DNA from: an uncultured Acidobacteriota bacterium
Lineage (GTDB): Bacteria > Acidobacteriota > Vicinamibacteria > Vicinamibacterales > UBA2999
Length of the DNA: 64,000 nt
Direction: 5' to 3'
NCBI GenBank assembly: GCA_902826515.1
Contig: CADEFD010000003.1
Span: forward strand, 968 to 64,967
Shown: positions 21,917-45,153 of the stretch, piece by piece
Position numbering within the stretch: the stretch's first letter is position 1
Layout of the letters: every line of letters starts with the position of its first letter
Notes under the pieces: model-generated
The model's input: only the letters and a program-made list of their open reading frames with translations
Told to the model about the DNA's origin: nothing
The model's database searches: none
Translations under genes and position numbers: made by a program

Positions 21917-22422
21917 GCGTCTCCTACGGACACCCCGCCCCGGGGATGAGCACGATCTTCTTCGCTTCCACCGGACTGCACCTCCGCTACCGCTGCGATC
22001 CGCTCGGCCACCAGATCGTGGTGACCGACGACGCCGGCGAAGTCGTGCGCGTCTTCGGCGGCTTCGGCCGCAAGGCCGGCGCGCTCGACACGCCGCTCGA
22101 CGTCGTGTTCGTGCGGCCCGAGTTCGCCGGCGAACGCCTGCCGGTCGATTCGGCCGACGCCGTGTGGGTGGCGGTGGCCGACTACGGCAACCGCCGCGTG
22201 CAGGTCTTCGAGCTCGACGGCAGCACGGTGGGCGAGTTCTCGCTCGACGCGTCCGACGGCACCCCGTGGTCGCCGACCGGTCTCGTGTGGCGCTCGCCGG
22301 TGCTCGAGGTCGAAGGCCTCGACGGCGCGCGGACGGCGGTGCATCTGAGCGCGGCGCTCCTTGCCGGCGCCGGCCGCACCACCTTCAGCCGGACCCTGCA
22401 GGGCGGCGAGGCGCGGCACTGA
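21913..22422 (+). CDS. NHL-repeat-like beta-propeller fragment protein
   Basis: LDTPLDVVFV...VAVADYGNRRVQVFELDG resembles an NHL repeat (P.GvavD..g.iyVaD..N.RvqvF). Confidence 0.4.
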   Translation: MSVSYGHPAPGMSTIFFASTGLHLRYRCDPLGHQIVVTDDAGEVVRVFGGFGRKAGALDTPLDVVFVRPEFAGERLPVDSADAVWVAVADYGNRRVQVFELDGSTVGEFSLDASDGTPWSPTGLVWRSPVLEVEGLDGARTAVHLSAALLAGAGRTTFSRTLQGGEARH

Positions 22423-28862: not shown

Positions 28863-29548
28863 ACATCCGGCTCTCCGCCACCCAGGTCTCGCGCGACCGC
28901 TGGCTCATCTCGTACGCGGACTTCATGACGCTGCTCTGCGCGTTTTTCATGACCGTCTACGCGGCCACCCTCGCCGAGACGCCGGCGGCCACGGCCGCCG
29001 CGCCCGTCGCCGCGGCCGCGCCGGCCGTCGAGACGGCGCCCGAGCCGCCGCCGGTCGATCCGTCAGTCGCGCTTCGCGAACAGGTGGAGCGGGCGCTGGC
29101 GCCGGAACTTGCCGCGGGATACCTGCAGCTCGTCGAGGATCCGCGCGGCCTCGTCATCGAAGTGCCCGAAGCCGGCGCGTTCGATGTGGGGCAGGCGGCG
29201 CTCGCGCCCGAGGCGCAGGCGATGCTCTCGCGCATCGCGACCATGCTCACGACGCTGCCGAACGCGGTGCGCATCGAAGGCCACTCCGACACGACGCCGA
29301 TCCGCACGCCGCAGTACGCGTCGAACTGGGATCTCTCGACCGCGCGCGCGACCAGCGTCGTCGAGTTCCTCGTGACCACGGCGGGCCTCGTGCCGTCGCG
29401 GCTGTCGGCCGCGGGCTACGCGGAGTTCAAGCCGCGCGCCTCGAACGACACGCCGGAGGGCCGGGCCCGCAACCGTCGCGTGGACCTCGTGCTGCTGAAC
29501 GACGCGACGGCACGCGCCGAGGAACCGGCAGGGAGCCTGCGGCCATGA
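28859..29548 (+). CDS. motB: MotB/PomB-family stator protein (set 1) with OmpA-like domain
   Basis: RWLISYADFMTLLCAFFM (conserved Asp in the TM helix). C-terminal OmpA motif (IEGHSDTTPIRT..NWDLSTARATSV...NRRVDLVLL). Confidence 0.9.
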   Translation: MNIRLSATQVSRDRWLISYADFMTLLCAFFMTVYAATLAETPAATAAAPVAAAAPAVETAPEPPPVDPSVALREQVERALAPELAAGYLQLVEDPRGLVIEVPEAGAFDVGQAALAPEAQAMLSRIATMLTTLPNAVRIEGHSDTTPIRTPQYASNWDLSTARATSVVEFLVTTAGLVPSRLSAAGYAEFKPRASNDTPEGRARNRRVDLVLLNDATARAEEPAGSLRP

Positions 29549-30693
29549 GGTGCCCGTTCACCAACGCGGAACTCGAGCGCCTGCTCGACCGGCCGGTGCG
29601 GCACCTGCTCGGCGCCGCGGATCGAAAGCGCTACTCGGGGCGGCGGCTGCTCATCACCGGCGCCGGCGGCTCGGTGGGCTCGGAACTCTCGCGCCAGCTC
29701 GCCGACTGCCGGCCCGAGGTGCTCACGCTCGTCGATCACTCCGAACTGCATCTCTTCGAGATCAGCAAGGAGCTGTCCGAACGTGTCCCCGGCCTGGCCA
29801 TCGAGCCGGTGCTCGCCGACATCTGCCAGGCGCCGCTCATGCGCCGCACGATCCTGCAGGCGTCGCCCGACGTGGTCTTCCACGCTGCCGCCTACAAACA
29901 TGTGTCGATGATGGAGCGCGATGTCTGCGCGGCCGTGGGCGCCAACGTCCTCGGCACGGCCAACGTGGTCGAGGCGAGCCGCGAGGCGGGCGCCCGCTTC
30001 GTGCTCATCTCGTCCGACAAGGCGGCCGCGCCGCGCAGCGTGATGGGGGCGACCAAGCGGCTGGCCGAACTCGTGGCGCTCGCCGCCACGCCCGGCGGCG
30101 CGCGGCCGATCGTGGTGCGTTTCGGCAACATCCTCGGCAGCAGCGGCAGTCTCCTCGCGATCTTCCGCGACCGCATCCGCCAGGGCCTGCCGCTCGCCCT
30201 GACCGACCCCTCGGCGACGCGCTACGTGATGACGGCCGGGGAAGCGGTGGCGCTCGTGATGAAGGCCGATCTGCTGGCCCGGCGTCCCGAGACCTACTGG
30301 CTCGACATGGGCGAGCCGATCGAGATCGGCGGCCTGACGGAGCGGCTGCTGGCGCTCGAGGCCGAGGCGGGATTCGCCCGCGTGCCGATTGAGATCGTGG
30401 GCCTCGGGCCCGGCGAGAAGCGGTGTGAGGAACTGACCACCCAGGGCCTGCGGATGTGCCCGACGGCGCACCGCCGCATCTGGGTGGCGCGCCAGAAGAC
30501 GAGCGACGGCGAGGCGGTCACGCGGGTGATCGCGCGGCTGCGGCGGATCGTGGAACAGGGCGACGCCGAGGCGGCGCTCGACCTGCTGGCCGGCGCGGTG
30601 CCCGATTTCGAAGCGAGCGATGAGGCGTGGGCGTGGGCCCGGCGCCGGAGCGCCCCGGTGGTCCGCCGCAGCGGACTGTCGCGGAGCGCATAA
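29545..30693 (+). CDS. pseB: CapD/Polysacc_synt_2-family UDP-GlcNAc 4,6-dehydratase (PseB/FlaA1-like)
   Basis: LLITGAGGSVGSELSRQL...FHAAAYKHVSMME...FVLISSDKAAAPRSVMGATKRLAE. ATGA overlap with the motB stop. Confidence 0.7.
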   Translation: MRCPFTNAELERLLDRPVRHLLGAADRKRYSGRRLLITGAGGSVGSELSRQLADCRPEVLTLVDHSELHLFEISKELSERVPGLAIEPVLADICQAPLMRRTILQASPDVVFHAAAYKHVSMMERDVCAAVGANVLGTANVVEASREAGARFVLISSDKAAAPRSVMGATKRLAELVALAATPGGARPIVVRFGNILGSSGSLLAIFRDRIRQGLPLALTDPSATRYVMTAGEAVALVMKADLLARRPETYWLDMGEPIEIGGLTERLLALEAEAGFARVPIEIVGLGPGEKRCEELTTQGLRMCPTAHRRIWVARQKTSDGEAVTRVIARLRRIVEQGDAEAALDLLAGAVPDFEASDEAWAWARRRSAPVVRRSGLSRSA

Positions 30694-30704
30694 CGGAGAC
30701 TGTT

Positions 30705-31829
30705 GTGCGGATTCTTCATCTCATGGCGTTCGTCAGCGGCGCGGCCGGCAAGGCCGTGGCCGAACTGGCGGTGGGGCAGAAGCGCGCCGGTCACCACGTG
30801 ACGGTCGTGACGTCGAAGACGCCGGCCGGCGGGGTGATGAACCAGCCGGTGCTCATGCGGAAGCTGAGCGACGGCGGCGTGTTCGTACACGCGGTCGATT
30901 CGCTGGCCTCGCGGCAGACCGCCCCCAATGCCGACGTGGTGCAGTTCATCCACGACCACCTCGGCACGGCGGCGGCCTTCGACGTGCTGCACACCCACGG
31001 CACGGTGCCGAGTGTCATCGCCATCGCCGCGGCGCGCCGGGTCACGGCCCGCGTGCCCATTCTGCAGACCTCGCACGAGTGGACGGTGTCGCGTCCGGGC
31101 GGCGGCCGCCAGGCCTACGACCTCGAGGTGATGAACCTCGTGGATCGCGCGGTCGTGCCCACGTGGTCGGTCGCCGAACACTTCGTGTCGCGCGGCGTCG
31201 TGCGGCGGCAGCTCGCCGTCGTGCCCTACGGCGTGCTGCCCGATCCGCCGCCCTCGTCGGGCGACATGCTCGAGCGCGAGATGCATGCGTGGCGCGCGGC
31301 CGGCGGCCTCGTGCTCTGCTATGTCAGCGCGACGACCACCTCGCACGACCAGCGCCTGCTGCTGAACGCGCTGCCGTTCGTGGACGCGCGCCTCAAGATC
31401 CTCTGCGTCTTCTTCGGTGGGCAGGAATCGCGGGCGACCGCGCCGTGGCCCACCGACGGCCCGGTCACCGTGCGCGTGGCGCCGCAGGAGGCCGCCGTGC
31501 GCCAGTACTCGCACGAAGCGGACTTCCTGGTGCTGCCGTCGGGCGACGGCGAACAGCCGCTCGCCGTGCTCGAAGCCTTCTGCGACCAGGTGCCGGTCGT
31601 AGCCAGCCGCGTGCCGGAACTCTCCGAGTTCATCGATGACGGGCAGACCGGCTGGCTCTTCGATCCGACCGACACGCGGGCGCTCGCCGAAACGCTGACG
31701 CTGGCGCGATCGACGGCGCCGCACGCGCTGCGCGCGCTCTGCCAGCGGGCCCGCGTGCGGTACCAGCAGGAGTTCACCATCGATCGGATGGTGACCGGCT
31801 ACATGCGCGAATACGCCCGGCTCGGGTGA
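30705..31829 (+). CDS. GT4-family glycosyltransferase
   Basis: VRILHLMAFVSGAAGKAVAELAVGQKRAGHHVTVV. C-terminal DFLVLPSGDGEQPLAVLEAFCDQVPVVASRVPELSEFIDDGQTGWL (E-x7-E). GTG start with a GGAG RBS. Confidence 0.8.
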   Translation: MRILHLMAFVSGAAGKAVAELAVGQKRAGHHVTVVTSKTPAGGVMNQPVLMRKLSDGGVFVHAVDSLASRQTAPNADVVQFIHDHLGTAAAFDVLHTHGTVPSVIAIAAARRVTARVPILQTSHEWTVSRPGGGRQAYDLEVMNLVDRAVVPTWSVAEHFVSRGVVRRQLAVVPYGVLPDPPPSSGDMLEREMHAWRAAGGLVLCYVSATTTSHDQRLLLNALPFVDARLKILCVFFGGQESRATAPWPTDGPVTVRVAPQEAAVRQYSHEADFLVLPSGDGEQPLAVLEAFCDQVPVVASRVPELSEFIDDGQTGWLFDPTDTRALAETLTLARSTAPHALRALCQRARVRYQQEFTIDRMVTGYMREYARLG

Positions 31830-31942
31830 GCACGCCGCGATGTCGGCGCGGCGACGGGCGCCGCGCGGCCAAGGGTCGGCGGACCGACATCCACAGGGTG
31901 CGAATTGCACAGGATTGTCGCCCGTGACCACCGCTACCTGAA

Positions 31943-31958
31943 CGGCACACTCGTTGCT
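31943..31958 (+). promoter_or_regulatory. Candidate sigma-54 promoter upstream of the pyruvyltransferase-MTase gene
   Basis: CGGCACACTCGTTGCT versus TGGCAC-N5-TTGCW, with exact spacing. It sits in a ~220-nt gap after the GT4 gene. Confidence 0.45.
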
Positions 31959-32051
31959 CAGTTGACGGGCATGGTTCTCCCAACCGTCCGTCACGAAGTT
32001 CCGCCGACCGGCGCCGACGCCGGACACCAGCGGCGCACCGGCCCGGCCACG

Positions 32052-33629
32052 ATGCCGCTGGCCGTCGGTCTCTTCAACGACAGCGGCGATGACGCGCAGG
32101 TCGTGAGCCTCGCCGTCTCGCAGGCCCACCGCCGCATGCTCCAGCGGGCCGGCGCCCACGTGCGCCACGCCTACTACCGCAGCGACTGGCAGGAACTCGG
32201 CACCGGCACCCTCGACGAGGCCGTCGCCGCCGCCCTGGCCTCGGCGGAACTGCGCCGCGTGTTCGCCGATGTCGATGTCATCGTCGTCGCCGGTGACACC
32301 TTCGCGAGCCGCGGCCACCGCCACCTCCTCGCGATCCTCGGCGCCGCCCAGCACCTCGACCTCCCGACCTACCTCGTGAATGCGACCATCGGGCCGCTCA
32401 CCGAAGGCCGCGAGATCCTGCAGGGCCTGGCCGACTGCACGGTGCGCGACCTGGCGACGAGCCGGGTGCTCAAGGCGCTCGGGATCGGCCATCGCCGTGT
32501 GCCCGACGCCGTCTTCGGCGCGCCCTTCGCGGCCACCGCCCGCCGCGACTTCTCCGATCACCTCGTCGTGACCGACTGCCACCCGTCGCGCCGTATCGAG
32601 TTCACGGCCGACCTGGCCGTCGTGCGCGGCGCCTGGCCGGGCATGGTGGCGGACTACCCGCTCGATGCGCCCGGCAGCACGCACGACTGGGCCTCCGCGG
32701 TGGCCGATCTCGGCACCGCCTCGGCCATCCTCACGGGCGGCCGCGACGGCGCGGCGCTGGCGCTGCGCGCCGGGGTGCCGTTTGTCGCACTCGGCCTGGC
32801 CGGCGAGGCCAACGACTTCATCGAGACGCTCGACGGCTATCCGGCGGCCGCGGCCGACCCGACGCGGTCGCTCGACGCCCGCCTGGCGTCGGCGATCGAC
32901 GCGCGGACCTGGTTTGTCGAGGCGGCGGCGCGCTGCCAGACGCGCGGTCCCGCCGATGCGTTCTCGCGGCTGCGCCCGAGCATGGCGCTCACCGGCCGCG
33001 ACGACACGTGGAGTGGCGCCATCGACGGCGCCGTGGACGTGGTGCGCGGGCTGACGCCCGCCGGCGGCAGTGTGCTGCACGCCGGCGCCGGCCAGGGGCA
33101 GCTCGTCGAAGCGCTGGCCCGCATCGGCCTGCGCTCGTGGGGCACCGATGTGGCCCGCCGGCTCGACCGGCCCGACCGCAATCGCTACTCGAAGGCAACG
33201 CCGATGGCGCTGCCGTTTGCCGACCACGTCTTCTCGACGGTGGTGGTGTCGGCCGACTGGCTCGAACATCTCGAAGCCGCCGACCTCGATGCCGCCGTCG
33301 CCGAACTGGCGCGCGTCGGCCGCGACACCCTTGTCGTCGAAGTCTCGGGCCGCCCGGTGCGCGCCGAACGCGCCTTCGCCGAGCGCCTGAGCGACGAGTG
33401 GTGGCGCCGCCGCCTCGGCACGCTGGGGCTCACGCCGCACGAAGCCTCCGATACGCTCGTCACGCACGGCGCCGGGCCCACCGGCGGCACGCTGCTCGTC
33501 ATGTCGGCGCACGCCCAGCTCTGCCCGAGCTGCCGGCGCGTGCATGCGCCGGTCGATCACGTGGAGCCGGTGCACGCCGGCGTGCTCATGGCCGCCGCCG
33601 AGGCGCGGGTCCTGTCGCTTCGCCGCTGA
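32052..33629 (+). CDS. Polysaccharide pyruvyl-transferase-like domain fused to a class I SAM methyltransferase
   Basis: N-terminal VDVIVVAGDTFASRG..AQHLDLPTYLVNATIGPL...CTVRDLATSRVLKALGI...VPDAVF (PS_pyruv_trans pattern). C-terminal GGSVLHAGAGQGQLVEAL...LPFADHVFSTVVVSADWLEHL (MTase motifs I-III). Starts at 31905 or 31971 are alternatives. Confidence 0.55.
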   Translation: MPLAVGLFNDSGDDAQVVSLAVSQAHRRMLQRAGAHVRHAYYRSDWQELGTGTLDEAVAAALASAELRRVFADVDVIVVAGDTFASRGHRHLLAILGAAQHLDLPTYLVNATIGPLTEGREILQGLADCTVRDLATSRVLKALGIGHRRVPDAVFGAPFAATARRDFSDHLVVTDCHPSRRIEFTADLAVVRGAWPGMVADYPLDAPGSTHDWASAVADLGTASAILTGGRDGAALALRAGVPFVALGLAGEANDFIETLDGYPAAAADPTRSLDARLASAIDARTWFVEAAARCQTRGPADAFSRLRPSMALTGRDDTWSGAIDGAVDVVRGLTPAGGSVLHAGAGQGQLVEALARIGLRSWGTDVARRLDRPDRNRYSKATPMALPFADHVFSTVVVSADWLEHLEAADLDAAVAELARVGRDTLVVEVSGRPVRAERAFAERLSDEWWRRRLGTLGLTPHEASDTLVTHGAGPTGGTLLVMSAHAQLCPSCRRVHAPVDHVEPVHAGVLMAAAEARVLSLRR

Positions 33630-33637
33630 GGTCCGCC

Positions 33638-35578: not shown

Positions 35579-36715
35579 ATGCGGATCCTGCATCTCACGA
35601 CGTTCCTCCAGGGCGGCGCCGGCCGCATCATCGCCGCGCTGGCCGTGGCGCAGCGTCGCTCGGGCCATGACGTGACCGTCGTCGCCGACGATGGCGGCGA
35701 GGACGGGTACGGGTCCTACCCGGAGTATCTGGCGGCCCTCGCGACGGCCGGCGTCGGCTACGCGACGGTGCGGTCGACCTTCAAGCGGGAGCTGCCCCTC
35801 GCGATGCAGGCGGCGCAGCAGCTGCGCGCGATCGCCGGTCCGTCTCCGCCCGACATCGTCCACACGCACGCATCCATCCCCACGCTCGTGGCGCGGGTCG
35901 CGTTCGGGCCGGCGCGGGTCCGGCTCGTCCAGACGATGCACGGGTGGGGTGTTCGTAAGACGCCCGACCAGGTGACCACCGACCTGTCCCTGCTGGCCGC
36001 GGCCGATGCGGTCGTGACGCCGTCGGACGCGGCGCGACGGTTCCTGCACGCCCTCGGTCTCGTCCATCCGGCCATGCATGTCATTCCCTACGGGCTGGAT
36101 CCCGCCGCGTCAACGGCGCCGGTCGATGCGGCCGACGTCGCGCGGCTGCGCCAGGTGCGCGCCGGCGGCGCCCGGGTGGCCGTGTGCCTCGGCACGATCG
36201 GCGCGCGCAAGAATCAGGCGCTCCTCGTGGCGGCGCTGACGTCGCTGCCGGAATTCGCGGCGGTCTTCATCGGCGATGGCGAGGGTGACGCACTCGAGGC
36301 GATGGCGGCGGCCCAGGGGGTCGGGGCGCGGGTGCACGTGCTGGGCTATCGCAGTGATGCCAGCCGCTACCTGCCGTACGCCGATGTGCTCGTGCTGCCG
36401 TCCCGCAACGAAGGTCTGCCCATCGCGGTGCTCGAGGCGCTGCGCGCCGGGGTGCCGGTGGTGGCGAGCGCAATTCCCGAGATTGCCGAAGCGATCGAGG
36501 ACGGGCGCACGGGCTATCTCTGCACGCCCGACGATCCCCTGGCGCTGGCCGCGGCGCTGCGCCGCAGTGTGGTGCCCGAGGTGCGCGCCTCCATGGCGGC
36601 CGCGGCGCGTGCGACCTTTGCCGCCCGCTACGAGCTGACGTCGATGACCCGGGCCTACGATCGTGTCTACCGCGGTGAGTTCGGCCCCGAGCAGGAGCGC
36701 GTCGCCGCGCGATAG
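35579..36715 (+). CDS. GT4-family glycosyltransferase
   Basis: MRILHLTTFLQGGAGRIIAALAVAQRRSGHDVTVV. LVLPSRNEGLPIAVLEALRAGVPVVASAIPEIAEAIEDGRTGYL. Confidence 0.85.
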   Translation: MRILHLTTFLQGGAGRIIAALAVAQRRSGHDVTVVADDGGEDGYGSYPEYLAALATAGVGYATVRSTFKRELPLAMQAAQQLRAIAGPSPPDIVHTHASIPTLVARVAFGPARVRLVQTMHGWGVRKTPDQVTTDLSLLAAADAVVTPSDAARRFLHALGLVHPAMHVIPYGLDPAASTAPVDAADVARLRQVRAGGARVAVCLGTIGARKNQALLVAALTSLPEFAAVFIGDGEGDALEAMAAAQGVGARVHVLGYRSDASRYLPYADVLVLPSRNEGLPIAVLEALRAGVPVVASAIPEIAEAIEDGRTGYLCTPDDPLALAAALRRSVVPEVRASMAAAARATFAARYELTSMTRAYDRVYRGEFGPEQERVAAR

Positions 36716-37539
36716 GCGGGCTCGTCGGCCAGGCACCACTCGAAGGGCGTGCCGCGCAGCGCGGCTTGCAGCTGCGCGAAGTTGGCGATCGTCTGGTCGA
36801 GCGGCAGCGACGACTGCCTGGTGAGCGTCGCCCGGTTGGTGAAGGTGTCGCCCACGCCGAACCACGCCGCGAGCTGCTGCAGCGCGCCCGGCGCCATGGC
36901 GCCCGAGCCGTCTGGAAAGAGATCCGTGTACTCCACTCGCAGAAAGCGGGCCCAGTCGAGAAACGCGCCCGCCACGCCGTTGTCCTCGAACGCCCAGTGC
37001 TCCATCGTGGCGAGCGCCTCGGCCGGCGGCACGGTCACCTGCAGGTCGGGCGGCGCCACGCCGTCACGCACGTAGTAGCGCCCGGTCGCGCGGCCCTTCA
37101 GCGTGGACAGCAGGCAGCGCAGATGGTTGTGGCGGGTGAGCTGGATGACGCCGAGGCCCCGGGCCTTGATGAGCTCGAACAGCGTCGGCGATCCGATCGA
37201 GCGCCAGACGCCGCCGATGTGGTGCGTGCTGTTGTACTTGACGTCCACGACGATGTGCCGCTTCGGCGTCAGGCCGCGCAGATACGTCAGGTAGTCGTCG
37301 AAGAGCTGGTCGTGACGGTCCGGGAACGCCCGGGTGACGTCGCCCGCGCAGTACGCTTCGAGGAACGTGAAGTAGTTGCTCGCGCGGACCCGGGGGTCGG
37401 ATGAACGCCGGTCCTCGAACTTGAACACCTCATCGAAACAGCAGATGTCGGGGTGGGTGTCGAGGACCGACCGCAGCGCGTTGGTGCCGCTGCGCTGGCG
37501 CGCCAGCAGCACGGTCACATCCGGAAAGGTCATCGCCAT
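36667..37539 (-). CDS. NodH/Stf0-like sulfotransferase-family protein
   Basis: VTVLLARQRSGTNALRSVLDTHPDI (5'-PSB-like loop) and GVIQLTRHNHLRCLLSTLKGRATGRY (3'-PB-like region). The pattern was recalled from NodH-type enzymes. Confidence 0.55.
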   Translation of the reverse strand: MAMTFPDVTVLLARQRSGTNALRSVLDTHPDICCFDEVFKFEDRRSSDPRVRASNYFTFLEAYCAGDVTRAFPDRHDQLFDDYLTYLRGLTPKRHIVVDVKYNSTHHIGGVWRSIGSPTLFELIKARGLGVIQLTRHNHLRCLLSTLKGRATGRYYVRDGVAPPDLQVTVPPAEALATMEHWAFEDNGVAGAFLDWARFLRVEYTDLFPDGSGAMAPGALQQLAAWFGVGDTFTNRATLTRQSSLPLDQTIANFAQLQAALRGTPFEWCLADEPAYRAATRSCSGPNSPR

Positions 37540-38316
37540 TTACCGGACCGCCGCGGCATCGATCTGCGCGTCGAGGGTGGCGTGCAGCGCGCTGAACGGC
37601 GCCGGCAGCGCGACGTGCCACCGGGTTGGCGCATGTTCCCATGGCCGGGCCAGCAGCGTCCGGGCCAGCGGCACGAGGGCGGTCAGGTCAGCGGGGAGAC
37701 GCACCGCGCCGATGTTCTGCTGCGGGCCGCCGGCCAGCTTTTCGAACGGCCACTCGTCGAACAGCCACTTGGCGCCCCACGCGGCATACTGCGGCGCCAG
37801 GCGCGGCAGGTCGATGTCGTGGAGGATGACCCACGACTGGCGTCGAGCCAGCACGCTCACGTGCAGCAGGTCGAGCAGCGGCCAGGGGTGATAGTGGTTG
37901 GCGTCGATGAACGTGAGGTCCACGCTCCCGGCGGGCAGCGCCTGCGAGAGCCGGCGGGCGTCGGTGTCGGTATCGAGTACCCACGTCGTGCACGGCTGCG
38001 GATACATCGTGCGCACGGCCTCGCCGGTGGCTCGCGCCGCGTCGAAATAGCAGGTCGGTGTGATATCGCACGAGCGAAGCCGCCGCGGCCGCGCACCGGC
38101 GGGCAGTGCGTCGAGGGCGTGCAGCAGGTACGCCGACGAGACCCCCGAGGCGACGCCGAGTTCGAGCATGTCCGCCGGTGCGTGGGCGGTCACCATCGCC
38201 TGCAGAAACTCAGCGTCGCCGGGCGGTATCGCACCGCGCACCCACGACGGCGCGGGCTGCACCTCGGGCCGCGGACGGCCGACGTCGTCGGCGCGGCAGG
38301 AGGCCGCGACGGTCAT
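37540..38316 (-). CDS. Class I SAM methyltransferase (Methyltransf_24/CmcI-like), stand-alone copy
   Basis: MLELGVASGVSSAYLLHAL (motif I) and VDLTFIDANHYHPWPLLDL. ATGA overlap with the upstream 1029-aa gene. The ORF-track N-terminus (to 39027) is an out-of-gene extension. Confidence 0.7.
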   Translation of the reverse strand: MTVAASCRADDVGRPRPEVQPAPSWVRGAIPPGDAEFLQAMVTAHAPADMLELGVASGVSSAYLLHALDALPAGARPRRLRSCDITPTCYFDAARATGEAVRTMYPQPCTTWVLDTDTDARRLSQALPAGSVDLTFIDANHYHPWPLLDLLHVSVLARRQSWVILHDIDLPRLAPQYAAWGAKWLFDEWPFEKLAGGPQQNIGAVRLPADLTALVPLARTLLARPWEHAPTRWHVALPAPFSALHATLDAQIDAAAVR

Positions 38317-39030
38317 GCCGTCACCAGCTCCGGCCGGGCGGTGAGCCGGGCGGAGAGCGCGTTGCGCACCGCCGCGAACGCCGCCGGCAGTTGCGTGTGT
38401 TCGATCGAAGGCGCCTGCTCCCACGGGCGCTCGAGCAGCGCCAGGGCGACCGGTATGAGGCGCGAGGGATCGGTGGGGAGCTGCACCGCGCCGATCGACG
38501 TCCAGCGGCCCACACCTTTCACCTTGTTGAACGGCCACGCCTGGAACAGCCAGCGCGGCCCGAACACCTGATGGTCCGGATGTTGTACCGGCAGGTCGAT
38601 GTCGTGCAGGATGACCCACGAGCCCGGCCTGGCGAACGCGGTGACGTGCAGCAGGTCGAGCAGCGGCCAGGGGTGTGAGTGATTGGCGTCGATGAAGGTG
38701 AGATCCGCGCCGCCCGGCGGGAGCGCTGCCGCGAGCGTACGGGCGTCGGCGGCGAAGGCCCGGTGCCACGCGGCCCGCGGCGCGGGATACATCTCGCGGC
38801 ACGCCTGTCCGGTCTCGTAAGCCTCGTTGAAGTAGCAGGTCGCGCGGACGTCGCACGAGTAGAGCGCGCGGGCCGGGCCGGCTGGCAACTGGTCGAGCGC
38901 ATACAGCAGGGCCGCTGACGAGGCCCCGGACGCCACGCCCAGTTCGACGACCGTCGAGGGCTGCAGCGCCGACACCATGTGCAGCAGGAACGCCGCGTCT
39001 TCGCCGCTGACGTACCCGGTGGCCCACGCC
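37540..39030 (-). repeat. Tandem duplication of a ~750-bp methyltransferase module
   Basis: The stand-alone MTase and the C-terminal domain of the 1029-aa protein align over ~235 aa. Shared blocks: ELGVASG.SSA.LL.ALD.LPAG, DLTFIDANH.HPWPLLDLLHV, SWVILHDIDLP, WLF..WPF, IGAVQLP/VRLP, LLERPWE/LLARPWE. DNA blocks such as GTGCAGCAGGTCGAGCAGCGGCCAGGGGTG also recur. Confidence 0.8.
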
Positions 39031-41402
39031 GGCGGCTGATACATGTCCTGCAGACCGGCGAGGTTCACGGGCACGGCACCGAAACGGTTCGTGAGGCGTG
39101 TGGCCGTGGACGGCTCAGGGCGGGGGGGAGGGTCCCGGTAGAGCAGCACGTGTTCGACTGGGACGTGCTGCAGGCGCGCGTACATCTCGTGCTCGAATTC
39201 CCGCGACGAGTAGACGACGACGTCTGCGAGGTCACGGCGGAACTCGTCGGGCGTCACACACGGCAGGCCGAGGAACGGCGCCGACGCCTGGCGGTCGATG
39301 AAGCCGCCGAGGAAGCGGCCGAGCTCCGGGCAGATCGCCAGCAGCCGGCGCGTATGTGTGCCGGTGCCATAGACGAAGACCCGAGGCTCGCTGACGTGCC
39401 AGCGTGTCACGAGCGCGTGCAGCCGCTGACGGACCGCCATGAGGTCGCGCACGTAGGGATCGCGGCCCGTGGGCGGCACCAGCCCGGCATACACGGCCAG
39501 CAGGTCATCGGGCATCGAAAAGAACTGCGCCAGCGTCGCCAGATCCGCCTGCGTCCCGGTCGACGAACCACCGGCGCGGGCCGACTTCAGCGTCCAGCCC
39601 AGGTCGAGCCCCGCGGGCCGTCGCGCATGGTACTGCCGGATCACTCCTTCGACGTCGGCATAGCCGCTTTCGAATGCGGCGGCCGGCACGGTGTAGAGCA
39701 CGGCGGGCACGACGGCCTGCGACAGGCCGCTGCAGGCGGTGGCCGCGTATGCCGGCCAGAAGGGCAGCGTGCCGTGGGTCGCCGCCGAGGCGATGGCGGC
39801 AAAGGCGCGTGGGTGGGCGGCAAAGCAGGGCCCGCCGAACGTGTTGTCACGCCAGCCGGTTTCGAGACTGGCGCCGAGCGGCGTCACACATTCGTCCGTC
39901 CCCGCCGGCGTCTCTCGCACGAAGTACGACGTCGCGATCGAGACGCCCGGCTGGGCGACGGCCGCCAAGAGACGCGCCAGCCCGCCGGGCTCCGGCTGCA
40001 CGCGCCCGTCGAGCACGATGGCCGGGGTGCTCGCGGCCGCGCCCGTCCAGTCCTCGAAGCGCAACCAGCGTCCCGCCTGCGCGGCGGCGTCGTGTCGCAC
40101 CACGCGGTCCCTGATCTCCTGGAGCCCGGCGTCGTCGCCGGCGTTCGTGACGACGACATCGAAGGCGGCGCCGGCCGCGATGCGCTGCGGCGCCGGCCGG
40201 GCCAGCAGGTCGCGCACGAAGTCGACGTGTGCCGAGTTGGCGGTCTGCACGTCGTAGCCGGACCGGTAGTCGATGGCGACGCGGCCCTCACGGCAGATGC
40301 GCCCGACGGTGGTGGCGAGCGCCAGGGCCGTCGGTTCGGCCAACAGGTGGCGGTTGGCCGCGCCGACGATCTCGGGGATGCCGCCGATGGCCGTCGACAC
40401 GAAGGGAATGCGGCGGGTGTAGAGCTCGATGACCGCGTATGGCAGGTTGTCGACCAGACTCGGGGCCACGACCAGCACGTGCGGCTGGGCCGCCAGCCAG
40501 GTCTGCGCTTCGAAGGAGCCGGCGTCGCCGATGATGGTCCAGGCGATCTCGGGAAGTGTCGCCATGTGAGCGGCGATGTAGGTGTCGCTCGGCTGGCCCT
40601 CGACGCTCGACGGCTTGCCGAGGAACGTCACGCGATCGATCTGCCCGCGCAGGGCGGGCGCGGCCAGCGCCTGGCAGAACAGGTGCAGGCCCTTGCGCGT
40701 CTCGAGCCGTCCGAAGAACACCAGGTGACGGAACGGCCCGGAATGTTCGATCGCGGTTGGCGCCTGCGCCAGCGTGGTGTCGAAACAGTACGGGATCACG
40801 GCACCCGGCTGCGCCAGCCGCCAGCGCGAGGCCGCCCAGTCAGCCATGTGCTGTGACGGAAAGATGGCGGCATCGGCCAGTCGGGCGGATTCCTTCTCGA
40901 GGAAGTCGACCGCCGCATCGGCCGGCGAGGCCGGCAGGCGTTTCATGCCCTCGTAGACCCATTGCCGCGACGAGTGCAGGGTCGTCGCCATGCGGACGCC
41001 GTCGAATGCCGCCGCCGCGTGGCGCGCCTGCAGTGCTCTGGCCCCGTGACCCAGGAACTCCTGGAAGAGCACGAGATCGAACCGGCGCGTCTGCAGCCAG
41101 GCCAGCACGGCGTCGGCCGTCTCGCTTTCGGTGCAGGCATAGCCGTCGCGCGGCGGGTGCACCACCGCGTGATCCTCGGCCCATCGCCCGAGGTCCACGT
41201 AGCGAAACGGCGCGGTGGCGGCAAAGTGTGTTTCCCAGTGGGCGGGTGTCTCGCGCTCGGTCCGTCCGGTATAGAGCACGGTGACGTCGTGCCCGGCGGT
41301 GCCCAGCGTGTGGGCCTCCCAATAGCAGGCGGTGCCGACGCCGCCGTTGGGAAACGGGCCGATGAACTCCGGCGAGACGATGCAGATGCGTGCGCGTGAC
41401 AT
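38313..41402 (-). CDS. 1029-aa multidomain enzyme: GT4 glycosyltransferase, unknown or GT-A-like middle, Rossmann-like segment, C-terminal Methyltransf_24-like domain
   Basis: N-terminal ARICIVSPEFIGPFPNGGVGTACYWEAHTLGTAGHDVTVLY plus VVAPSLVDNLPYAVIELYTRRIPFVSTAIGGIPEIV (GT4). C-terminal VVELGVASGASSAALLYAL...FIDANHSHPWPLLDL (MTase). Confidence 0.75.
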   Translation of the reverse strand: MSRARICIVSPEFIGPFPNGGVGTACYWEAHTLGTAGHDVTVLYTGRTERETPAHWETHFAATAPFRYVDLGRWAEDHAVVHPPRDGYACTESETADAVLAWLQTRRFDLVLFQEFLGHGARALQARHAAAAFDGVRMATTLHSSRQWVYEGMKRLPASPADAAVDFLEKESARLADAAIFPSQHMADWAASRWRLAQPGAVIPYCFDTTLAQAPTAIEHSGPFRHLVFFGRLETRKGLHLFCQALAAPALRGQIDRVTFLGKPSSVEGQPSDTYIAAHMATLPEIAWTIIGDAGSFEAQTWLAAQPHVLVVAPSLVDNLPYAVIELYTRRIPFVSTAIGGIPEIVGAANRHLLAEPTALALATTVGRICREGRVAIDYRSGYDVQTANSAHVDFVRDLLARPAPQRIAAGAAFDVVVTNAGDDAGLQEIRDRVVRHDAAAQAGRWLRFEDWTGAAASTPAIVLDGRVQPEPGGLARLLAAVAQPGVSIATSYFVRETPAGTDECVTPLGASLETGWRDNTFGGPCFAAHPRAFAAIASAATHGTLPFWPAYAATACSGLSQAVVPAVLYTVPAAAFESGYADVEGVIRQYHARRPAGLDLGWTLKSARAGGSSTGTQADLATLAQFFSMPDDLLAVYAGLVPPTGRDPYVRDLMAVRQRLHALVTRWHVSEPRVFVYGTGTHTRRLLAICPELGRFLGGFIDRQASAPFLGLPCVTPDEFRRDLADVVVYSSREFEHEMYARLQHVPVEHVLLYRDPPPRPEPSTATRLTNRFGAVPVNLAGLQDMYQPPAWATGYVSGEDAAFLLHMVSALQPSTVVELGVASGASSAALLYALDQLPAGPARALYSCDVRATCYFNEAYETGQACREMYPAPRAAWHRAFAADARTLAAALPPGGADLTFIDANHSHPWPLLDLLHVTAFARPGSWVILHDIDLPVQHPDHQVFGPRWLFQAWPFNKVKGVGRWTSIGAVQLPTDPSRLIPVALALLERPWEQAPSIEHTQLPAAFAAVRNALSARLTARPELVTA

Positions 41403-41408
41403 GGGGCC

Positions 41409-42275
41409 TCAGGCGCGTGCGGGCAGAGCCGGCGCGTATTTGAAGTAGTCGACCCATGCCGGGGCCGCGCTCACGGTGGCGTCGAAGATGGCCACCGCGT
41501 CGTCGACCTGCCCGAGCGACAGGCAGAGCGAGACGAGGTTGCACTGCTGGGCGGTCCATTCGCGGCCGCCGGGCTCGAATCGCTGCGCGCGCGCCGCCAG
41601 CGCGCGCAGCCGATCGGCGCCGAGATCGCGCAGGCGCGCCGGCAGTTCGCCGGGGGCCAGAGGCCGTTCCCACCGGTAGTAGGCCGTGGCCCACGGCATC
41701 GATCCCATGTAGGTGACGTGGTCGGCCAGCAGCTCCATCGTGATCGAGATCCAGGGCGTGTGCGGCCAGTGGTAGTCCTGCTGGATCACCGTGGAGACGC
41801 CCGGGATGAGGCGCGGGAAGAACTGCGCGACGAGGAAGTCGTTGGTCTCCCAGCTCTTGGCCACGTCGATGAAGAGGATCTCGATCGGCGTCGGCTCGGG
41901 CCATGGGAACGTGGCGATGTCGCCTTCGTGGACGGTCACGAACGAGGCGACGTCCGCGATCGTGCGGTCGTAGACGGGCCGCGTCGAGGCGCCTTCCGGC
42001 ACGCCATCGACGAACTGGCGCGCGAAGTGATCGGCCACGAAGATGTCGTAGGAATGGACGCGACCCGCGCGTTCGGCGACGCGCGGGTTGTCGCGCAGGC
42101 CGGTGGCCAGGGCCAGCGTCGACCCGCCCAGGAACGCGCCGCCGTCGATGATCTCGCCGCGGCCCGTGTACGAGTCGCGGGCGAGCGTGTAGAGCAGCTC
42201 GAGTTCCTGCGCGCTCAGCATCGTCCGCGCCTGGCGGACTTCGGGGGGGAGGAGTGTGGATTCGGCGGGTCTCAT
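41409..42275 (-). CDS. Methyltransferase-like (class I fold) hypothetical protein
   Basis: EIIDGGAFLGGSTLALATGL...IEILFIDVAKSWETNDFLV has the same overall layout as the Methyltransf_24-like genes downstream. Start taken at MRPAEST with a GGAG RBS. Confidence 0.4.
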   Translation of the reverse strand: MRPAESTLLPPEVRQARTMLSAQELELLYTLARDSYTGRGEIIDGGAFLGGSTLALATGLRDNPRVAERAGRVHSYDIFVADHFARQFVDGVPEGASTRPVYDRTIADVASFVTVHEGDIATFPWPEPTPIEILFIDVAKSWETNDFLVAQFFPRLIPGVSTVIQQDYHWPHTPWISITMELLADHVTYMGSMPWATAYYRWERPLAPGELPARLRDLGADRLRALAARAQRFEPGGREWTAQQCNLVSLCLSLGQVDDAVAIFDATVSAAPAWVDYFKYAPALPARA

Positions 42276-42313
42276 GGGCGCTCCGGGTGTGTGTGGATCT
42301 CGTCTGGAGCGAC

Positions 42314-42329
42314 AGCAACGGTTGTGCCA
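42314..42329 (-). promoter_or_regulatory. Candidate sigma-54 promoter for the MTase / GT-MTase / MTase / sulfotransferase operon
   Basis: Minus strand reads TGGCACAACCGTTGCT (15/16 to TGGCACG-N4-TTGCW). It lies ~40 nt upstream of ATG 42275, in the 163-nt gap after maf. Confidence 0.55.
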
Positions 42330-42438
42330 GCACTGCCGGATCGCCGACCCCGCAAGACGACGGTGTGAAACGTGCGGTGACGGCGGGCGCGGCATGTCGG
42401 CGTGCCGGCCGCGTCCGGAACACCGACACCAGGAGGTG

Positions 42439-44049
42439 TCAGGCCGGCTGGCCGGACGACAGCACCCGGCGGATCTCGTCCGCCGTCACGGCGCCGGCGG
42501 AGAAGTCCATCCACTGCGCCAGGGTCTCGCGGGCGCCGGGAGAGGTGGGCTGCGCGAGGAGCTCGCGACGCCGGGACGTAAGGCCGTCGTGGGGCCGCGC
42601 CTGCGCGCGGGCCGACCGCAGGATGTCGCGGACGTGGCCGCCGAGGGGCGCGTGCGGCCCGAGGACGTCGTGGAGCGTGGCGTGTTCGAGGTTCGCGCCG
42701 TGCAGGATGCCGGCGCCGGTGGTGTTCACGTACCGCCGTGAGCTGTCGGCACTGACCTGCTGGCACAGCCAGTCGCGAAAGGAGATGAGGTGCGGTGAGG
42801 TGAGGACCGGCCGGCCGTGCAGGTCCGGCACGCGCAGATCGGCGAGGCGTCCGAAGTAGTCGTCGACCAGCTGCTCCCACGTGCAGCCGTAGGTCGCCAT
42901 CGCCTCCCGCCACGTCGCGTCGTAGATGGTGTTGGCGCAGTACGGGCGTCGCACCGGATACGACAGGTCGAGGCCGGCGAACACGATCGGCGCGCAGCCG
43001 AGACGCACCGCAAGATCGAAGGCCGTCGTGACCACCGACCCCCACGCGCGCAGCGTGCCGCGGTCGAGCCCGGCGGCGCGCAGCCACGGCCAGGGCTCGT
43101 GGTCGCTGACCTTGAACACGAAGGTGCGGCCGGCGAAGCCGGTGAACGCCGAGGGGTGCAGGCTGCCTTCGGCGGCCAGGAAGATACCGTCCAGATCGTC
43201 GACGCCGGCGAGATGGCGCGCGTTCAGCTCGGCCGGATCGACACCGGCGACGAGGTGGGGCCGTACGCCACCGGCCAGCAGTGGCCGCAGCGTCGTGTCG
43301 GCGCCGATGACGACGGCACGATCCTGGAGCGCCGCCAGCGCCGGCAGCTGGTCGTCGAGCGAGGGTCCGGCACCGACGATGACCGCCGGGTGACCCGCCA
43401 GCAGCCCGTCCAGTGCGGCCGCATCCCCTTCGCGCGCGATGACCGGAAGATTGGCCAGCGTCTGCAGGAGGTACCGTCCAGCGAAGCGCCGGCGCGCGTC
43501 CGCATTCGCCCGGGCCTCGGCGACCAGGCGGCCGGCCACGGCCTCGGCGGCCTTCGCGTCCGCGGCGCGACAGGCGGCCAGGGCGCCGTTCACGATCAGG
43601 GTCGGCGGCGCGCTCACATCGACGAGGCGTCCGCAGTTCATCGCTCCGCCGTAGTCGGGACCCGTGAGCAGACACAGGCGGCCGTTCGTGATCCACGACG
43701 TCAGGTCGCGTCGCGCGAGCAGCAGCGCCGCGATGCCGGGGTCCGGTTCGAGCAGCACGAGGCGCGTGGACGCGCCCGATCGTTCGAGGTCGTCGATGAA
43801 CTCGCCGAGGGCCGGCCCGATGACGAAGAGCTGGCGGGGCCAGGTGGCGATGCGGGGGGCGTTGAGCGACTGCCACTCTCCCGTGGGGTGCCGCAGTTCC
43901 AGGCGCACCCCGTCCGCGCCATCTGCCACGGCCCGGGTGTGCGCCTCGTCGAGGCGTGCCAGCCCGGGGCGTTGTCCCTGCGCGCGTTCGAGCGCGGCAA
44001 GATTGGCGGCAAGGGTCGTCTCACTGAACACGCCAGATCCGGACTGCAC
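42439..44049 (-). CDS. maf: Maf-family (DUF115/MptE-like) motility accessory factor, putative flagellin nonulosonic-acid transferase
   Basis: AVIVGAGPSLDDQLPAL..AVVIGADTTLRPLL...GSVVTTAFDLAVRLGCAPIVFAGLDLSY is a typical DUF115 core. It is the C-terminal third of the artefactual 1523-aa ORF 42439-47010. The start is uncertain (GTG 44049 or 44031). Confidence 0.65.
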   Translation of the reverse strand: MQSGSGVFSETTLAANLAALERAQGQRPGLARLDEAHTRAVADGADGVRLELRHPTGEWQSLNAPRIATWPRQLFVIGPALGEFIDDLERSGASTRLVLLEPDPGIAALLLARRDLTSWITNGRLCLLTGPDYGGAMNCGRLVDVSAPPTLIVNGALAACRAADAKAAEAVAGRLVAEARANADARRRFAGRYLLQTLANLPVIAREGDAAALDGLLAGHPAVIVGAGPSLDDQLPALAALQDRAVVIGADTTLRPLLAGGVRPHLVAGVDPAELNARHLAGVDDLDGIFLAAEGSLHPSAFTGFAGRTFVFKVSDHEPWPWLRAAGLDRGTLRAWGSVVTTAFDLAVRLGCAPIVFAGLDLSYPVRRPYCANTIYDATWREAMATYGCTWEQLVDDYFGRLADLRVPDLHGRPVLTSPHLISFRDWLCQQVSADSSRRYVNTTGAGILHGANLEHATLHDVLGPHAPLGGHVRDILRSARAQARPHDGLTSRRRELLAQPTSPGARETLAQWMDFSAGAVTADEIRRVLSSGQPA

Positions 44050-45150: not shown

Positions 45151-45153
45151 GTC

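Follow-up and report, generated by a model that had tools for sequence, protein, structure and literature searches.

Filament assembly, surface charge, bundling, and recognition by phages and the immune system all depend on flagellin glycans, and the decorations known on bacterial flagellins comprise nonulosonic acids and methyl, acetyl, amino-acid, phosphate and taurine groups. The locus described here raises the question of whether sulfate esters may belong on this list. It lies in a 64-kb stretch of DNA (the window), which is a flagellar cluster of a Vicinamibacterales-like soil acidobacterium (a placement drawn from UvrA) with flhBA, fliA, fliM, flgGAHIKL, fliW, csrA, fliS, fliD, flagellin, nonulosonate genes and two motAB pairs. 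The motility apparatus of the Acidobacteriota is, to our knowledge, essentially unstudied. A first-pass annotation had singled out one gene of this cluster as a NodH/Stf0-like sulfotransferase, and we asked what this protein is and what it might modify.

A sulfotransferase gene at the end of a Maf operon

The gene occupies positions 36667..37539, the coordinates given by the first-pass annotation, lies on the minus strand, which that annotation had left unstated, and runs from an ATG start to a TAG stop, encoding 290 amino acids. The junction with the preceding methyltransferase gene reads ...GTC CGG TAA ATG GCG... on the coding strand, the stop codon (37542-37540) being followed by the sulfotransferase ATG (37539-37537) with a gap of 0 nt, as had been proposed. 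The 49-nt overlap reported between its 3' end and a convergent glycosyltransferase gene is likewise present (36667-36715); it is confined to the non-conserved C-terminal tail, and the conserved core of the family stops at about residue 277. GC content by codon position (0.65/0.49/0.93) follows the pattern of the window's other real genes (window GC 72%). A word-indexed search recovered 165 homologues at E<=1e-3, and an exhaustive search 399 cluster representatives at E<=1e-30 (clusters at 50% identity), while pairwise dN/dS values against orthologues of 0.22-0.49 point to purifying selection. Because of the codon-position GC, the homologue counts and the dN/dS values, the open reading frame is far beyond chance and is a real gene. 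All the relatives found are metagenomic, and members of the subfamily are mostly annotated as 'hypothetical'.

The sulfotransferase gene is the last of an operon with the order Maf, O-methyltransferase, GT4-methyltransferase, O-methyltransferase, sulfotransferase, in which junctions are 0-nt or ATGA overlaps, in agreement with the earlier description of it as the end of a Maf operon. The first gene (42439..44049, minus strand; alternative start possible at 44031) encodes a Maf (motility accessory factor, MptE-like) flagellin glycosyltransferase, matched by PF01973 at 1.4e-32 and by the NCBIfam PseD domain. It is followed on the same strand by a gene for a 328-aa Methyltransf_24-like protein (41409..42395), which stays below the Pfam threshold (25.1 bits vs a cut-off of 26.3), and by one for a 1029-aa protein (38313..41402) in which Pfam finds a GT4 glycosyltransferase at the N-terminus and a Methyltransf_24 domain at the C-terminus. 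The gene next to the sulfotransferase (37540..38316, minus strand), whose own ATG overlaps the upstream stop (ATGA), encodes a 258-aa Methyltransf_24 O-methyltransferase (PF13578 at 4e-11); a single-sequence search of the PDB with this protein found nothing, and a 12-sequence profile led to family-3 (CCoAOMT-like) O-methyltransferases.

The operon is flanked by nonulosonate-sugar genes and motAB. The convergent gene (35579..36715, plus strand) encodes a 378-aa GT4 glycosyltransferase, identified by Pfam. A nonulosonic-acid biosynthesis block on the plus strand (22164..28035, given as ORF limits, several true starts lying further downstream) comprises, by Pfam and NCBIfam, a DegT aminotransferase, an unknown ORF, HAD, a NeuB-type synthase, ATP-grasp and a CMP-sugar cytidylyltransferase that matches CTP_transf_3. 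Also on the plus strand, positions 29545..33629 hold a PseB-like 4,6-dehydratase, a GT4 enzyme and a 574-aa protein combining pyruvyltransferase-like and methyltransferase domains (Pfam, NCBIfam). Flagellin is encoded at 20345..21142 of the minus strand (265 aa from ORF Met56; Pfam Flagellin_N and Flagellin_C) and has a centre rich in Ser, Thr, Gly and Ala; it is the presumed carrier of the glycan. The mature protein contains only four Tyr, none of them outside the conserved helical regions at its ends. The locus is thus a Maf-type island, with a Maf (PF01973) gene and with nonulosonate and CMP-activation genes near flagellin. No match to the sigma-28 consensus TAAA-N14-16-CCGATA was found in the window, and no genes for polysaccharide export or polymerase (Wzx, Wzy, Wzm/Wzt) were seen in it.

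Fold, cofactor loops and catalytic residues

The Pfam search that the first-pass annotation had recommended, for Sulfotransfer_3 or Sulfotransfer_1, gave a match to Sulfotransfer_3 (PF13469) at E 3.7e-5, but one limited to residues 15-62 and, with 24.5 bits, below the cut-off of 27. The same family is matched by 47 of 55 relatives at E<=0.01 (best E 7.8e-8), and the window protein is most sensibly placed in a divergent subfamily that is sister to Sulfotransfer_3. A profile of the family searched against the PDB matched 9VKI, the structure of Stam10, at E 2.6e-7, with both cofactor motifs covered; the deposition title of this entry is 'LPS sulfotransferase NodH'. An AlphaFold2 model (pLDDT 93.5, pTM 0.90) forms one alpha/beta domain around a central parallel sheet and places the motifs on the expected strand-loop-helix elements. 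Known sulfotransferases are structurally closest to it: in a Foldseek search of the PDB the best 28 matches are all sulfotransferases (TPST, Stf0, 3-OST, NST, SULT) that use 3'-phosphoadenosine 5'-phosphosulfate (PAPS), and shikimate and adenylate kinases appear far lower in the ranking.

The Pfam match, the 9VKI profile match and the 28 Foldseek matches support a sulfotransferase fold of the broad NodH/Stf0/Sulfotransfer_3 type, and to this extent the NodH/Stf0-like label holds. It does not extend to orthology. Searching NCBIfam with the window protein returned no usable family model, and the NodH and NoeE equivalogs were not matched full-length; NoeE was the sole match, at E 0.11 and 11 bits vs a cut-off of 500, over 32 residues. 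The Stf0 family of Pfam (PF09037) gave no match to the window protein and was weakly matched by three of the 55 relatives (E>=7.6e-4), and the resemblance to Stf0 is structural only. Since no equivalog model matched, the protein is not an orthologue of NodH or Stf0.

Both sequence blocks that had been pointed out as sulfotransferase-like are present. The putative 5'-phosphosulfate-binding (5'-PSB) strand-loop-helix spans residues 11-26, LLARQRSGTNALRSVL (37462..37509, minus strand), of which R16, G18 and T19 are invariant, and in the model it forms beta1 (8-13), the loop Q-R16-S-G18-T19 and a helix (19-26). This loop aligns with R13/S16/S17 of Stam10 and with the R-S-G-T PSB loop of TPST; the Walker-A pattern GxxxxGK[ST] is absent from the protein. 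The putative 3'-phosphate-binding (3'-PB) motif, residues 132-155, IQLTRHNHLRCLLSTLKGRATGRY (37075..37146, minus strand), corresponds to the later of the two blocks and is modelled as a strand (130-135) followed by a helix (139-152). Its invariant R136 and S145 align with R108 and S117 of Stam10 at the same 9-residue spacing. An invariant Glu37 (codon 37429..37431, minus strand), the putative catalytic base that would contact the acceptor hydroxyl, aligns with Stam10 E34 and also with the second Glu of the 'GEE' of TPST1, the TPST catalytic base (E99 in TPST2).

Experiments have established Stam10 as an oligosaccharide fucose 2-O-sulfotransferase in which R13, S16, S17, E34, R108 and S117 are essential by mutagenesis, and E34 contacts the fucose O2 in a docking model (PMC13291958). 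These six residues correspond to R16, T19, N20, E37, R136 and S145 of the window protein. In an alignment of 55 diverse relatives, over which invariance was scored, R16, T19, E37, R136 and S145 are invariant, and N20 is neither invariant nor among the positions conserved in at least 90%. The protein thus possesses the elements expected of the superfamily, namely a 5'-PSB with a basic residue and G-S/T, a 3'-PB Arg/Ser pair and a putative Glu base, and appears to be a divergent but intact sulfotransferase that would use PAPS.

Conservation of the locus and the possible acceptor

The set of Maf, GT4-methyltransferase, sulfotransferase and convergent GT4 recurs in more than 12 related loci (L001, L003, L014, L029, L032, L034, L035, L036, L037, L039, L041 and L046-L051), with sulfotransferase identities of 52-75%. 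The GT4-methyltransferase is kept beside the sulfotransferase at 58-71% identity and the convergent GT4 partner at 57-68%. The methyltransferase genes are variable; that for the 328-aa protein is present in L001, L003, L035 and L037 and absent from L029, L034 and L036. In most of these loci FlgK/FlgL/FliW/CsrA or FliS/FliD/flagellin lie within 10 kb; around the Maf cassette of L029 there is no flagellar gene over that distance. Some close relatives (58-59% identity; L002, L004/L031, L043) are orphans without glycosylation neighbours.

More distant relatives (27-48% identity), from Actinomycetota, Planctomycetota and Verrucomicrobiota, are found in clusters rich in GT2 and GT4 genes, where a Methyltransf_24 gene and a gene for a 900-1000-aa GT4 protein are common neighbours. 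Across phyla the sulfotransferase family adjoins or is fused to the Methyltransf_24 family, and the fusion proteins occur in both domain orders. A further 440-aa methyltransferase-sulfotransferase 'fusion' (P0099), independent of the fusions counted here, is not reliable, its contig having many fragmented genes. A sugar is the most likely acceptor, since the distant relatives always lie in glycosyltransferase clusters and many of them adjoin a member of this methyltransferase family or are fused to one. The triad of GT4, methyltransferase and sulfotransferase is also found without Maf in non-flagellar glycan clusters, and the module is therefore not intrinsically flagellar.

The supply of the sulfate donor was also considered. 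APS kinase makes PAPS, and no PAPS-synthesis gene was found in the window by Pfam on the remaining ORFs or by tblastn with E. coli CysC, a query that recovers the APS kinases of the PDB at E 1e-34 to 1e-58. With the same query no APS kinase was found in 108 related loci, a set separate from the P0060 locus. The latter provides the single case of an APS kinase gene directly upstream of a sulfotransferase orthologue, in the order flagellin, DegT, NeuB, ATP-grasp, CMP-transferase, MotAB, PseB, APS kinase, sulfotransferase, adjoined by GT4-methyltransferase and Maf. This placement is the one indirect pointer to PAPS binding and sulfuryl transfer by the family.

The reading that we favour, and regard as reasonably probable, is a PAPS-dependent O-sulfation of an O-methylated flagellin glycan. 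The protein would be a soluble cytoplasmic sulfotransferase of a large uncharacterised Sulfotransfer_3/NodH/Stf0-type subfamily, with PAPS as donor. R16, S17, G18 and T19 in the beta1-alpha1 loop would hold the 5'-phosphosulfate, R136 and S145 the 3'-phosphate, and Glu37 would activate a sugar hydroxyl for attack on the sulfuryl group. The NeuB, CMP-transferase, PseB and DegT genes close by would provide a CMP-activated nonulosonic acid, which Maf would attach to Ser/Thr of flagellin in the cytoplasm; GT4 enzymes may then extend the glycan and Methyltransf_24 enzymes O-methylate it. Finally the sulfotransferase, whose gene closes the operon and is translationally coupled, would add a sulfate ester, so that flagellin would bear a methylated, sulfated and hence anionic glycan by the time it is exported. 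What the analysis shows is the fold, the cofactor and catalytic motifs, the structure of the operon, its conserved arrangement and the constant glycan setting of the family; we infer the use of PAPS, which sugar is the acceptor, whether sulfation precedes or follows the transfer to flagellin, and the role of flagellin as carrier. On this reading the lineage probably puts sulfated sugars on its flagella.

Other explanations have to be weighed against this one. The protein may be a genuine carbohydrate sulfotransferase that serves another glycoconjugate (an envelope polysaccharide, a lipo-oligosaccharide or another glycoprotein), the triad merely lying beside Maf. The Planctomycetota and actinobacterial-type clusters in which the triad occurs with GT2 and an ABC exporter, free of Maf and flagellar genes, are compatible with this, as are the orphan copies and the L029 locus. 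However, in the window's own clade the sulfotransferase gene runs in the same direction as Maf and is translationally coupled with it, the relative order of the two is preserved in the more than 12 loci, most of them between flagellin/FliD/FliS and FlgK/FlgL/FliW, and polysaccharide export genes were not seen in the window, so we consider another acceptor unlikely. Sulfation might instead fall on a nucleotide-activated sugar or a free nonulosonate precursor, before transfer by Maf or GT4, which would make the enzyme biosynthetic rather than tailoring and yield the same end product with another timing. The P0060 locus, where the sulfotransferase ends a sugar-biosynthesis operon (PseB, APS kinase, sulfotransferase) and not the Maf operon, would fit such a role. 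Yet in most loci the sulfotransferase follows glycosyltransferase and methyltransferase genes, and Stam10, the closest characterised relative, acts on assembled oligosaccharides of at least seven sugars (PMC13291958); early sulfation therefore seems distinctly improbable.

We reject two further readings. Direct sulfation of Tyr, Ser or Thr in flagellin or another flagellar protein, as by TPST or RaxST, might be suggested by tyrosylprotein sulfotransferases being the best single-sequence PDB matches and the top Foldseek match, but the sequence similarity to TPST is confined to the cofactor loop and catalytic Glu (residues 15-38), and the profile favours the carbohydrate enzyme Stam10 with an E-value better by five orders of magnitude. 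All relatives examined, bar the orphan copies, also lie among glycosyltransferases, and with the few Tyr of mature flagellin restricted to its terminal helices this reading is very improbable. A degenerate P-loop-like protein lacking catalytic activity, or an enzyme of kinase type with another chemistry, has the sub-threshold Pfam score and the low-ranking kinases of the Foldseek results on its side; it is opposed by the invariance of cofactor and catalytic positions over the 55 sequences, by purifying selection on the gene and by an R-S-G-T loop in place of Walker-A, and we give it hardly any credence.

Our search of the literature turned up neither a report of a sulfate ester on bacterial flagellin nor one of a flagellar glycosylation island with a sulfotransferase. 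If O-sulfation of the flagellin glycan is confirmed, it would represent a new, strongly anionic chemistry on bacterial flagella, open a first functional route into a large, mostly 'hypothetical' sulfotransferase subfamily and provide a functional context for its tight partnership with Methyltransf_24 O-methyltransferases. A wider proposal, which we make tentatively, is that a soil/freshwater Vicinamibacterales-like lineage of Acidobacteriota may carry O-sulfated, O-methylated flagellar glycans, with the first sulfate ester on a bacterial flagellin, and that the sulfotransferase/Methyltransf_24 pair may be a general two-enzyme unit for glycan tailoring or capping. Were this true, the pair, which occurs side by side or as a fusion in hundreds of protein clusters of different phyla, could resemble WbdD, the kinase and methyltransferase terminator of O-antigen synthesis. 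Bacterial glycan sulfotransferases with defined acceptors are wanted as tools for enzymatic sulfation.

Comparison with known systems

Stam10/Sam10, from saccharomicin biosynthesis (PDB 9VKI; PMC13291958), is by profile the closest solved relative. It shares with the window protein the 5'-PSB and 3'-PB motifs, the Arg-to-Ser spacing of 9 and a Glu after beta2, and its target is a hydroxyl on a sugar within an already assembled glycan. The two proteins align only in the two motif regions, however, the substrate-specific H37, Q87 and H155 of Stam10 are not conserved in the window protein, and the context of Stam10 is an actinomycete antibiotic gene cluster whereas that of the window protein is a flagellar operon. 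TPST2 gives the best Foldseek E-value (3AP3, 2.4e-6), and the RSGT...C.(D/E)E loop of TPST1/TPST2 hardly differs from that of the window protein, but TPSTs act on protein tyrosines in the Golgi whereas the window family, orphan copies aside, resides in glycan clusters. The mycobacterial trehalose 2-sulfotransferase Stf0 (1TEX; PF09037) reaches the highest target-normalised TM-score among the PDB matches (0.56-0.57) and has a Glu-type base and a carbohydrate acceptor, although it is only about 15% identical to the window protein. NodH and NoeE, the rhizobial Nod-factor sulfotransferases, are of the same broad fold and motif type, and differ in their lipo-chitooligosaccharide acceptor, their genomic context and the lack of an equivalog match; one relative of the window protein carries the JGI name 'LPS sulfotransferase NodH'. 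NoeE sulfates a 2-O-methylfucose, a methylated acceptor that parallels the pairing of sulfotransferase and methyltransferase in the window.

At the level of the glycan, the sulfonated peptidylamido-glycan on type B flagellin of Clostridium difficile (PMC5207245, PMC5207246) resembles the one proposed here in bringing an SO3 group and O-methylated sugars to a bacterial flagellin. Its SO3 group is a taurine C-sulfonate and not a sulfate ester, and the locus contains no glycosulfotransferase according to its authors (PMC5207245, PMC5207246). In Halobacterium salinarum the sulfotransferases VNG1056C and VNG1057C act on the N-glycan of archaellins and S-layer (PMC11980604), so that in that organism, as in the system proposed here, the subunit of a motility filament bears sulfated sugars and the glycosylation pathway has sulfotransferases of its own. 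The H. salinarum glycan differs in being archaeal, N-linked and built on a lipid carrier, and the archaellum is unrelated to the bacterial flagellum. The Maf-dependent islands described in Campylobacter, Helicobacter and Aeromonas caviae (PMC4065374) share with the window Maf, a NeuB-type synthase, a CMP-transferase, PseB and an aminotransferase beside flagellin, and the window island differs from them in its sulfotransferase, its three Methyltransf_24 domains or genes and its giant GT4-methyltransferase protein.

The sulfotransferase gene and its operon

By Pfam and NCBIfam, the window is a flagellar regulon throughout, encoding FlhB, FlhA, FliA, FliM, FlgG, FlgA, FlgH, FlgI, an M23 peptidase, FlgK, FlgL, FliW and CsrA, together with FliS, FliD and a short flagellin. 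It also carries a nonulosonate pathway (DegT, HAD, NeuB-type synthase, ATP-grasp, CMP-transferase and PseB-like dehydratase), two GT4 genes, a pyruvyltransferase-like plus methyltransferase protein and a GGDEF-EAL regulator. The sulfotransferase gene is coupled to Maf as the last member of a minus-strand operon, the place given to it by the first-pass annotation. Maf (42439-44049) comes first, followed by a Methyltransf_24-like gene (41409-42395), a 1029-aa GT4 plus Methyltransf_24 protein (38313-41402), a Methyltransf_24 gene (37540-38316) and the sulfotransferase (36667..37539), with 0-nt or ATGA overlaps at the junctions; a divergent motAB comes after the operon. The Methyltransf_24 profile matches PDB family-3 (CCoAOMT/COMT-like) O-methyltransferases.

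Since a GC content of about 72% makes long spurious ORFs common in this window, codon-position GC is a useful filter, and the values for the sulfotransferase ORF (0.65/0.49/0.93) match those of the genuine genes around it. The coordinates stand as first annotated, the minus strand being the only addition; both motif blocks named then occur in the 290-aa translation, one spanning residues 11-26 and the other residues 132-155. Read along the coding strand, the boundary between the last two operon genes is ...CGG TAA ATG GCG..., the methyltransferase stop directly abutting the sulfotransferase start with the 0-nt gap previously reported. The reported 49-nt overlap at the other end is also found: the TAG stop (36667-36669) lies within the convergent GT4 gene (35579..36715). 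This overlap takes in only the non-conserved tail (residues 278-290), the conserved core ending ...DEPAYR at about residue 277 in a 55-sequence family alignment.

Several other features of the window deserve mention. The nonulosonate operon contains a second MotA/MotB-like pair (27951-29548, plus strand), flanked by the genes for the CMP-sugar cytidylyltransferase and the PseB-like dehydratase, in addition to the canonical motAB at 44278-46047; the insertion is kept in related locus L035 and at the locus of related protein P0060. At 31905-35551 (plus strand), among glycosylation genes, a 574-aa protein with a class I methyltransferase domain and a weak polysaccharide-pyruvyltransferase domain precedes a GGDEF-EAL response regulator, a pair conserved in loci L034 and L035; pyruvylation of the glycan is a further possibility, as is a connection of the island with c-di-GMP signalling. 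For the flagellin, listed as an ORF of 320 aa at 20345-21307 (minus strand), Met56 (MASFSVVSNVSAQ...) is almost certainly the true start; the resulting protein is short (265 aa), with a Ser/Thr/Gly/Ala-rich centre and no large outer domains. Over 52000-57000 the GC content falls to 0.63-0.67, from about 0.72, and none of the ORFs matches Pfam; this stretch may be an island or of foreign origin. At the window end, UvrA (59118-62294, plus strand) shares 95% identity with an 'Acidobacteria bacterium' protein and 84-86% with 'Vicinamibacterales bacterium' proteins, which identifies the lineage of the host, and it is 100% identical to a protein on a 77.5-kb NCBI contig. Its relative P0279 shares the 33.65-kb contig of L034, so that the linkage of uvrA to the flagellar cluster extends to relatives.

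A divergent PAPS sulfotransferase

A Pfam search, as proposed with the first-pass annotation, matched the window protein to Sulfotransfer_3 at 24.5 bits (E 3.7e-5), below the cut-off of 27 and over the N-terminal loop only; NCBIfam gave no useful family match, and phmmer against the PDB with the single sequence found TPST1 as best match at E ~0.2. A word-indexed search retrieved 165 homologues, nearly all labelled 'hypothetical protein', and an exhaustive search of 1.84 billion representatives found 399 proteins at E<=1e-30, 3669 at E<=1e-10 and 8318 at E<=1e-3. Sulfotransfer_3 is matched individually by 47 of the 55 aligned members, and the family profile has one good match among solved structures, 9VKI (E 2.6e-7, across two stretches). 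This is Stam10, a homologue of Sam10, fucose 2-O-sulfotransferase of saccharomicin, in which alanine substitutions showed R13, S16 and S17 (5'-phosphosulfate-binding), R108 and S117 (3'-phosphate-binding) and E34 each to be essential, E34 contacting the acceptor O2 in a docking model (PMC13291958). With the numbering of the PDB chain corrected for its 20-residue tag, the HMMER alignment places these six residues at R16, T19, N20, R136, S145 and E37 of the window protein, respectively; the Arg-to-Ser spacing of the 3'-phosphate-binding motif is 9 residues in both proteins. R16, G18, T19, E37, D99, K101, R136, R141 and S145 are invariant in 55/55 sequences.

The AlphaFold2 model, of high confidence (pLDDT 93.5, pTM 0.90), has the sulfotransferase fold, with the motifs on canonical elements (beta1 at 8-13, loop, helix 19-26; strand 130-135, helix 139-152). 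Foldseek against the PDB returned only PAPS-dependent sulfotransferases at ranks 1-28 (TPST1/2, an Alicyclobacillus sulfotransferase, Stf0, 3-OSTs, NST, SULTs), above the P-loop kinases. With modest TM-scores (0.33-0.57) and 11-16% identity, the protein belongs to a divergent branch; as beta1 begins at residue 8, it has no signal peptide or membrane segment. The sub-threshold Pfam match, the profile match and the Foldseek ranking thus uphold the broad family first assigned. The protein is a new and divergent addition to the PAPS sulfotransferase superfamily, very probably functional, and orthologous to neither NodH, NoeE nor Stf0.

Close and distant relatives

We collected 108 loci from GTDB genomes, metagenome contigs and exact-protein look-ups, and screened them by tblastn with the window proteins. 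Close relatives (52-75% identity) nearly all lie in one cassette, in which Maf, GT4-methyltransferase, sulfotransferase and convergent GT4 follow in this order, a methyltransferase gene being optional both before and after GT4-methyltransferase (L001, L003, L014, L029, L032, L034, L035/L040, L036/L099, L037, L039, L041, L046-L051). Synteny with the window exceeds 15 kb in L034 and L035, and in L036, L037, L014, L032, L047 and L048 the cassette is flanked by FlgK/FlgL/FliW/CsrA and FliS/FliD/flagellin. Exceptions are orphan genes in a sub-group of 58-59% identity (L002, L004/L031, L043), and L029, where no flagellar gene lies within 10 kb of the Maf cassette. The P0060 locus (58% identity), the most informative one, encodes in order flagellin, DegT, HAD, NeuB, ATP-grasp, CMP-transferase, MotA, MotB, PseB, an APS kinase (PF01583) and the sulfotransferase, which GT4-methyltransferase and Maf adjoin. 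A dedicated PAPS-forming kinase directly upstream of the orthologue, in a flagellin glycosylation island, is what the proposed sulfation would predict; it is a single case, tblastn with a validated query finding no APS kinase in the window or in the 108 loci screened as DNA. The L037 island has an extra canonical Sulfotransfer_3 gene (17058-17939), a transposase and an additional Methyltransf_24/CmcI-like gene; sulfation capacity appears to vary among these islands.

Distant relatives (27-48% identity) occur in Gaiellaceae, Solirubrobacterales, Verrucomicrobiota and Planctomycetota. Among the loci screened theirs lack Maf, and the gene sits in GT2/GT4-rich clusters, very often with Methyltransf_24 and a GT4 protein of 900-1000 aa as neighbours. 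Fusions of the sulfotransferase domain with Methyltransf_24 exist in both orders among the exhaustive-search proteins; four of 1100-1500 aa (P0125, P0126, P0133, P0141) combine a canonical Sulfotransfer_3, a coiled coil, a window-type sulfotransferase domain and Methyltransf_24. WbdD-type O-antigen chain terminators consist of kinase, methyltransferase and coiled-coil ruler domains, an architecture that these proteins recall. In one planctomycetotal locus (L033), a GT, sulfotransferase and methyltransferase triad is preceded 3 kb upstream by a gene (5865-6665) of the Inositol_P family, to which the PAP phosphatase CysQ belongs. From the glycan clusters and the fusions we infer that the family acceptor is a glycan and not a polypeptide. 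The recurring association of sulfotransferase, O-methyltransferase and large GT4 suggests a tailoring module of ancient origin, one that became coupled to Maf-dependent flagellin glycosylation in the Vicinamibacterales lineage.

Probable sulfation of the flagellin glycan

We consider it reasonably probable that the product is a sulfated flagellin glycan. The R16-S17-G18-T19 loop would bind the 5'-phosphosulfate of PAPS, and R136 and S145 its 3'-phosphate. In-line sulfuryl transfer would follow deprotonation of a sugar hydroxyl by E37, with K101 perhaps stabilising the leaving group, a role that Lys has in other sulfotransferases. The substrate would be a flagellin O-glycan sugar, with Maf attaching a nonulosonate, GT4 enzymes extending it and Methyltransf_24 enzymes adding O-methyl groups; sulfation would take place in the cytoplasm, either before or after glycan transfer and ahead of export via the flagellar type III system. 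That the enzyme acts on another glycoconjugate is rather unlikely; we see a small chance that it sulfates an activated sugar precursor, which would be a variant in timing. Direct protein sulfation of the TPST kind is very improbable, as TPST similarity is found only in the cofactor loop and the profile favours a carbohydrate enzyme. A degenerate protein is hardly credible, and dN/dS against orthologues is 0.22-0.49.

The original reading, a sulfotransferase ending a Maf operon and a possibly sulfated flagellin glycan, is supported as far as sequence analysis reaches. The proposal is testable and depends on chemistry in an uncultured lineage; a sulfated glycan there would plausibly be a first, although it would extend the known chemistry of flagellin glycans only by a step. 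Full-text literature searches, with subscription journals mostly outside their coverage, returned no paper on a sulfotransferase together with Maf or a flagellin glycosylation island, and none on an O-sulfated bacterial flagellin glycan. The system is a Maf-type flagellin glycosylation system with a sulfotransferase plus O-methyltransferase tailoring module. Its nearest precedents are Clostridium difficile type B flagellin, which bears a taurine (C-sulfonate) cap and in whose locus the authors explicitly found no glycosulfotransferase (PMC5207245, PMC5207246), and the Halobacterium archaellins, whose sulfated N-glycan is made by VNG1056C and VNG1057C (PMC11980604).
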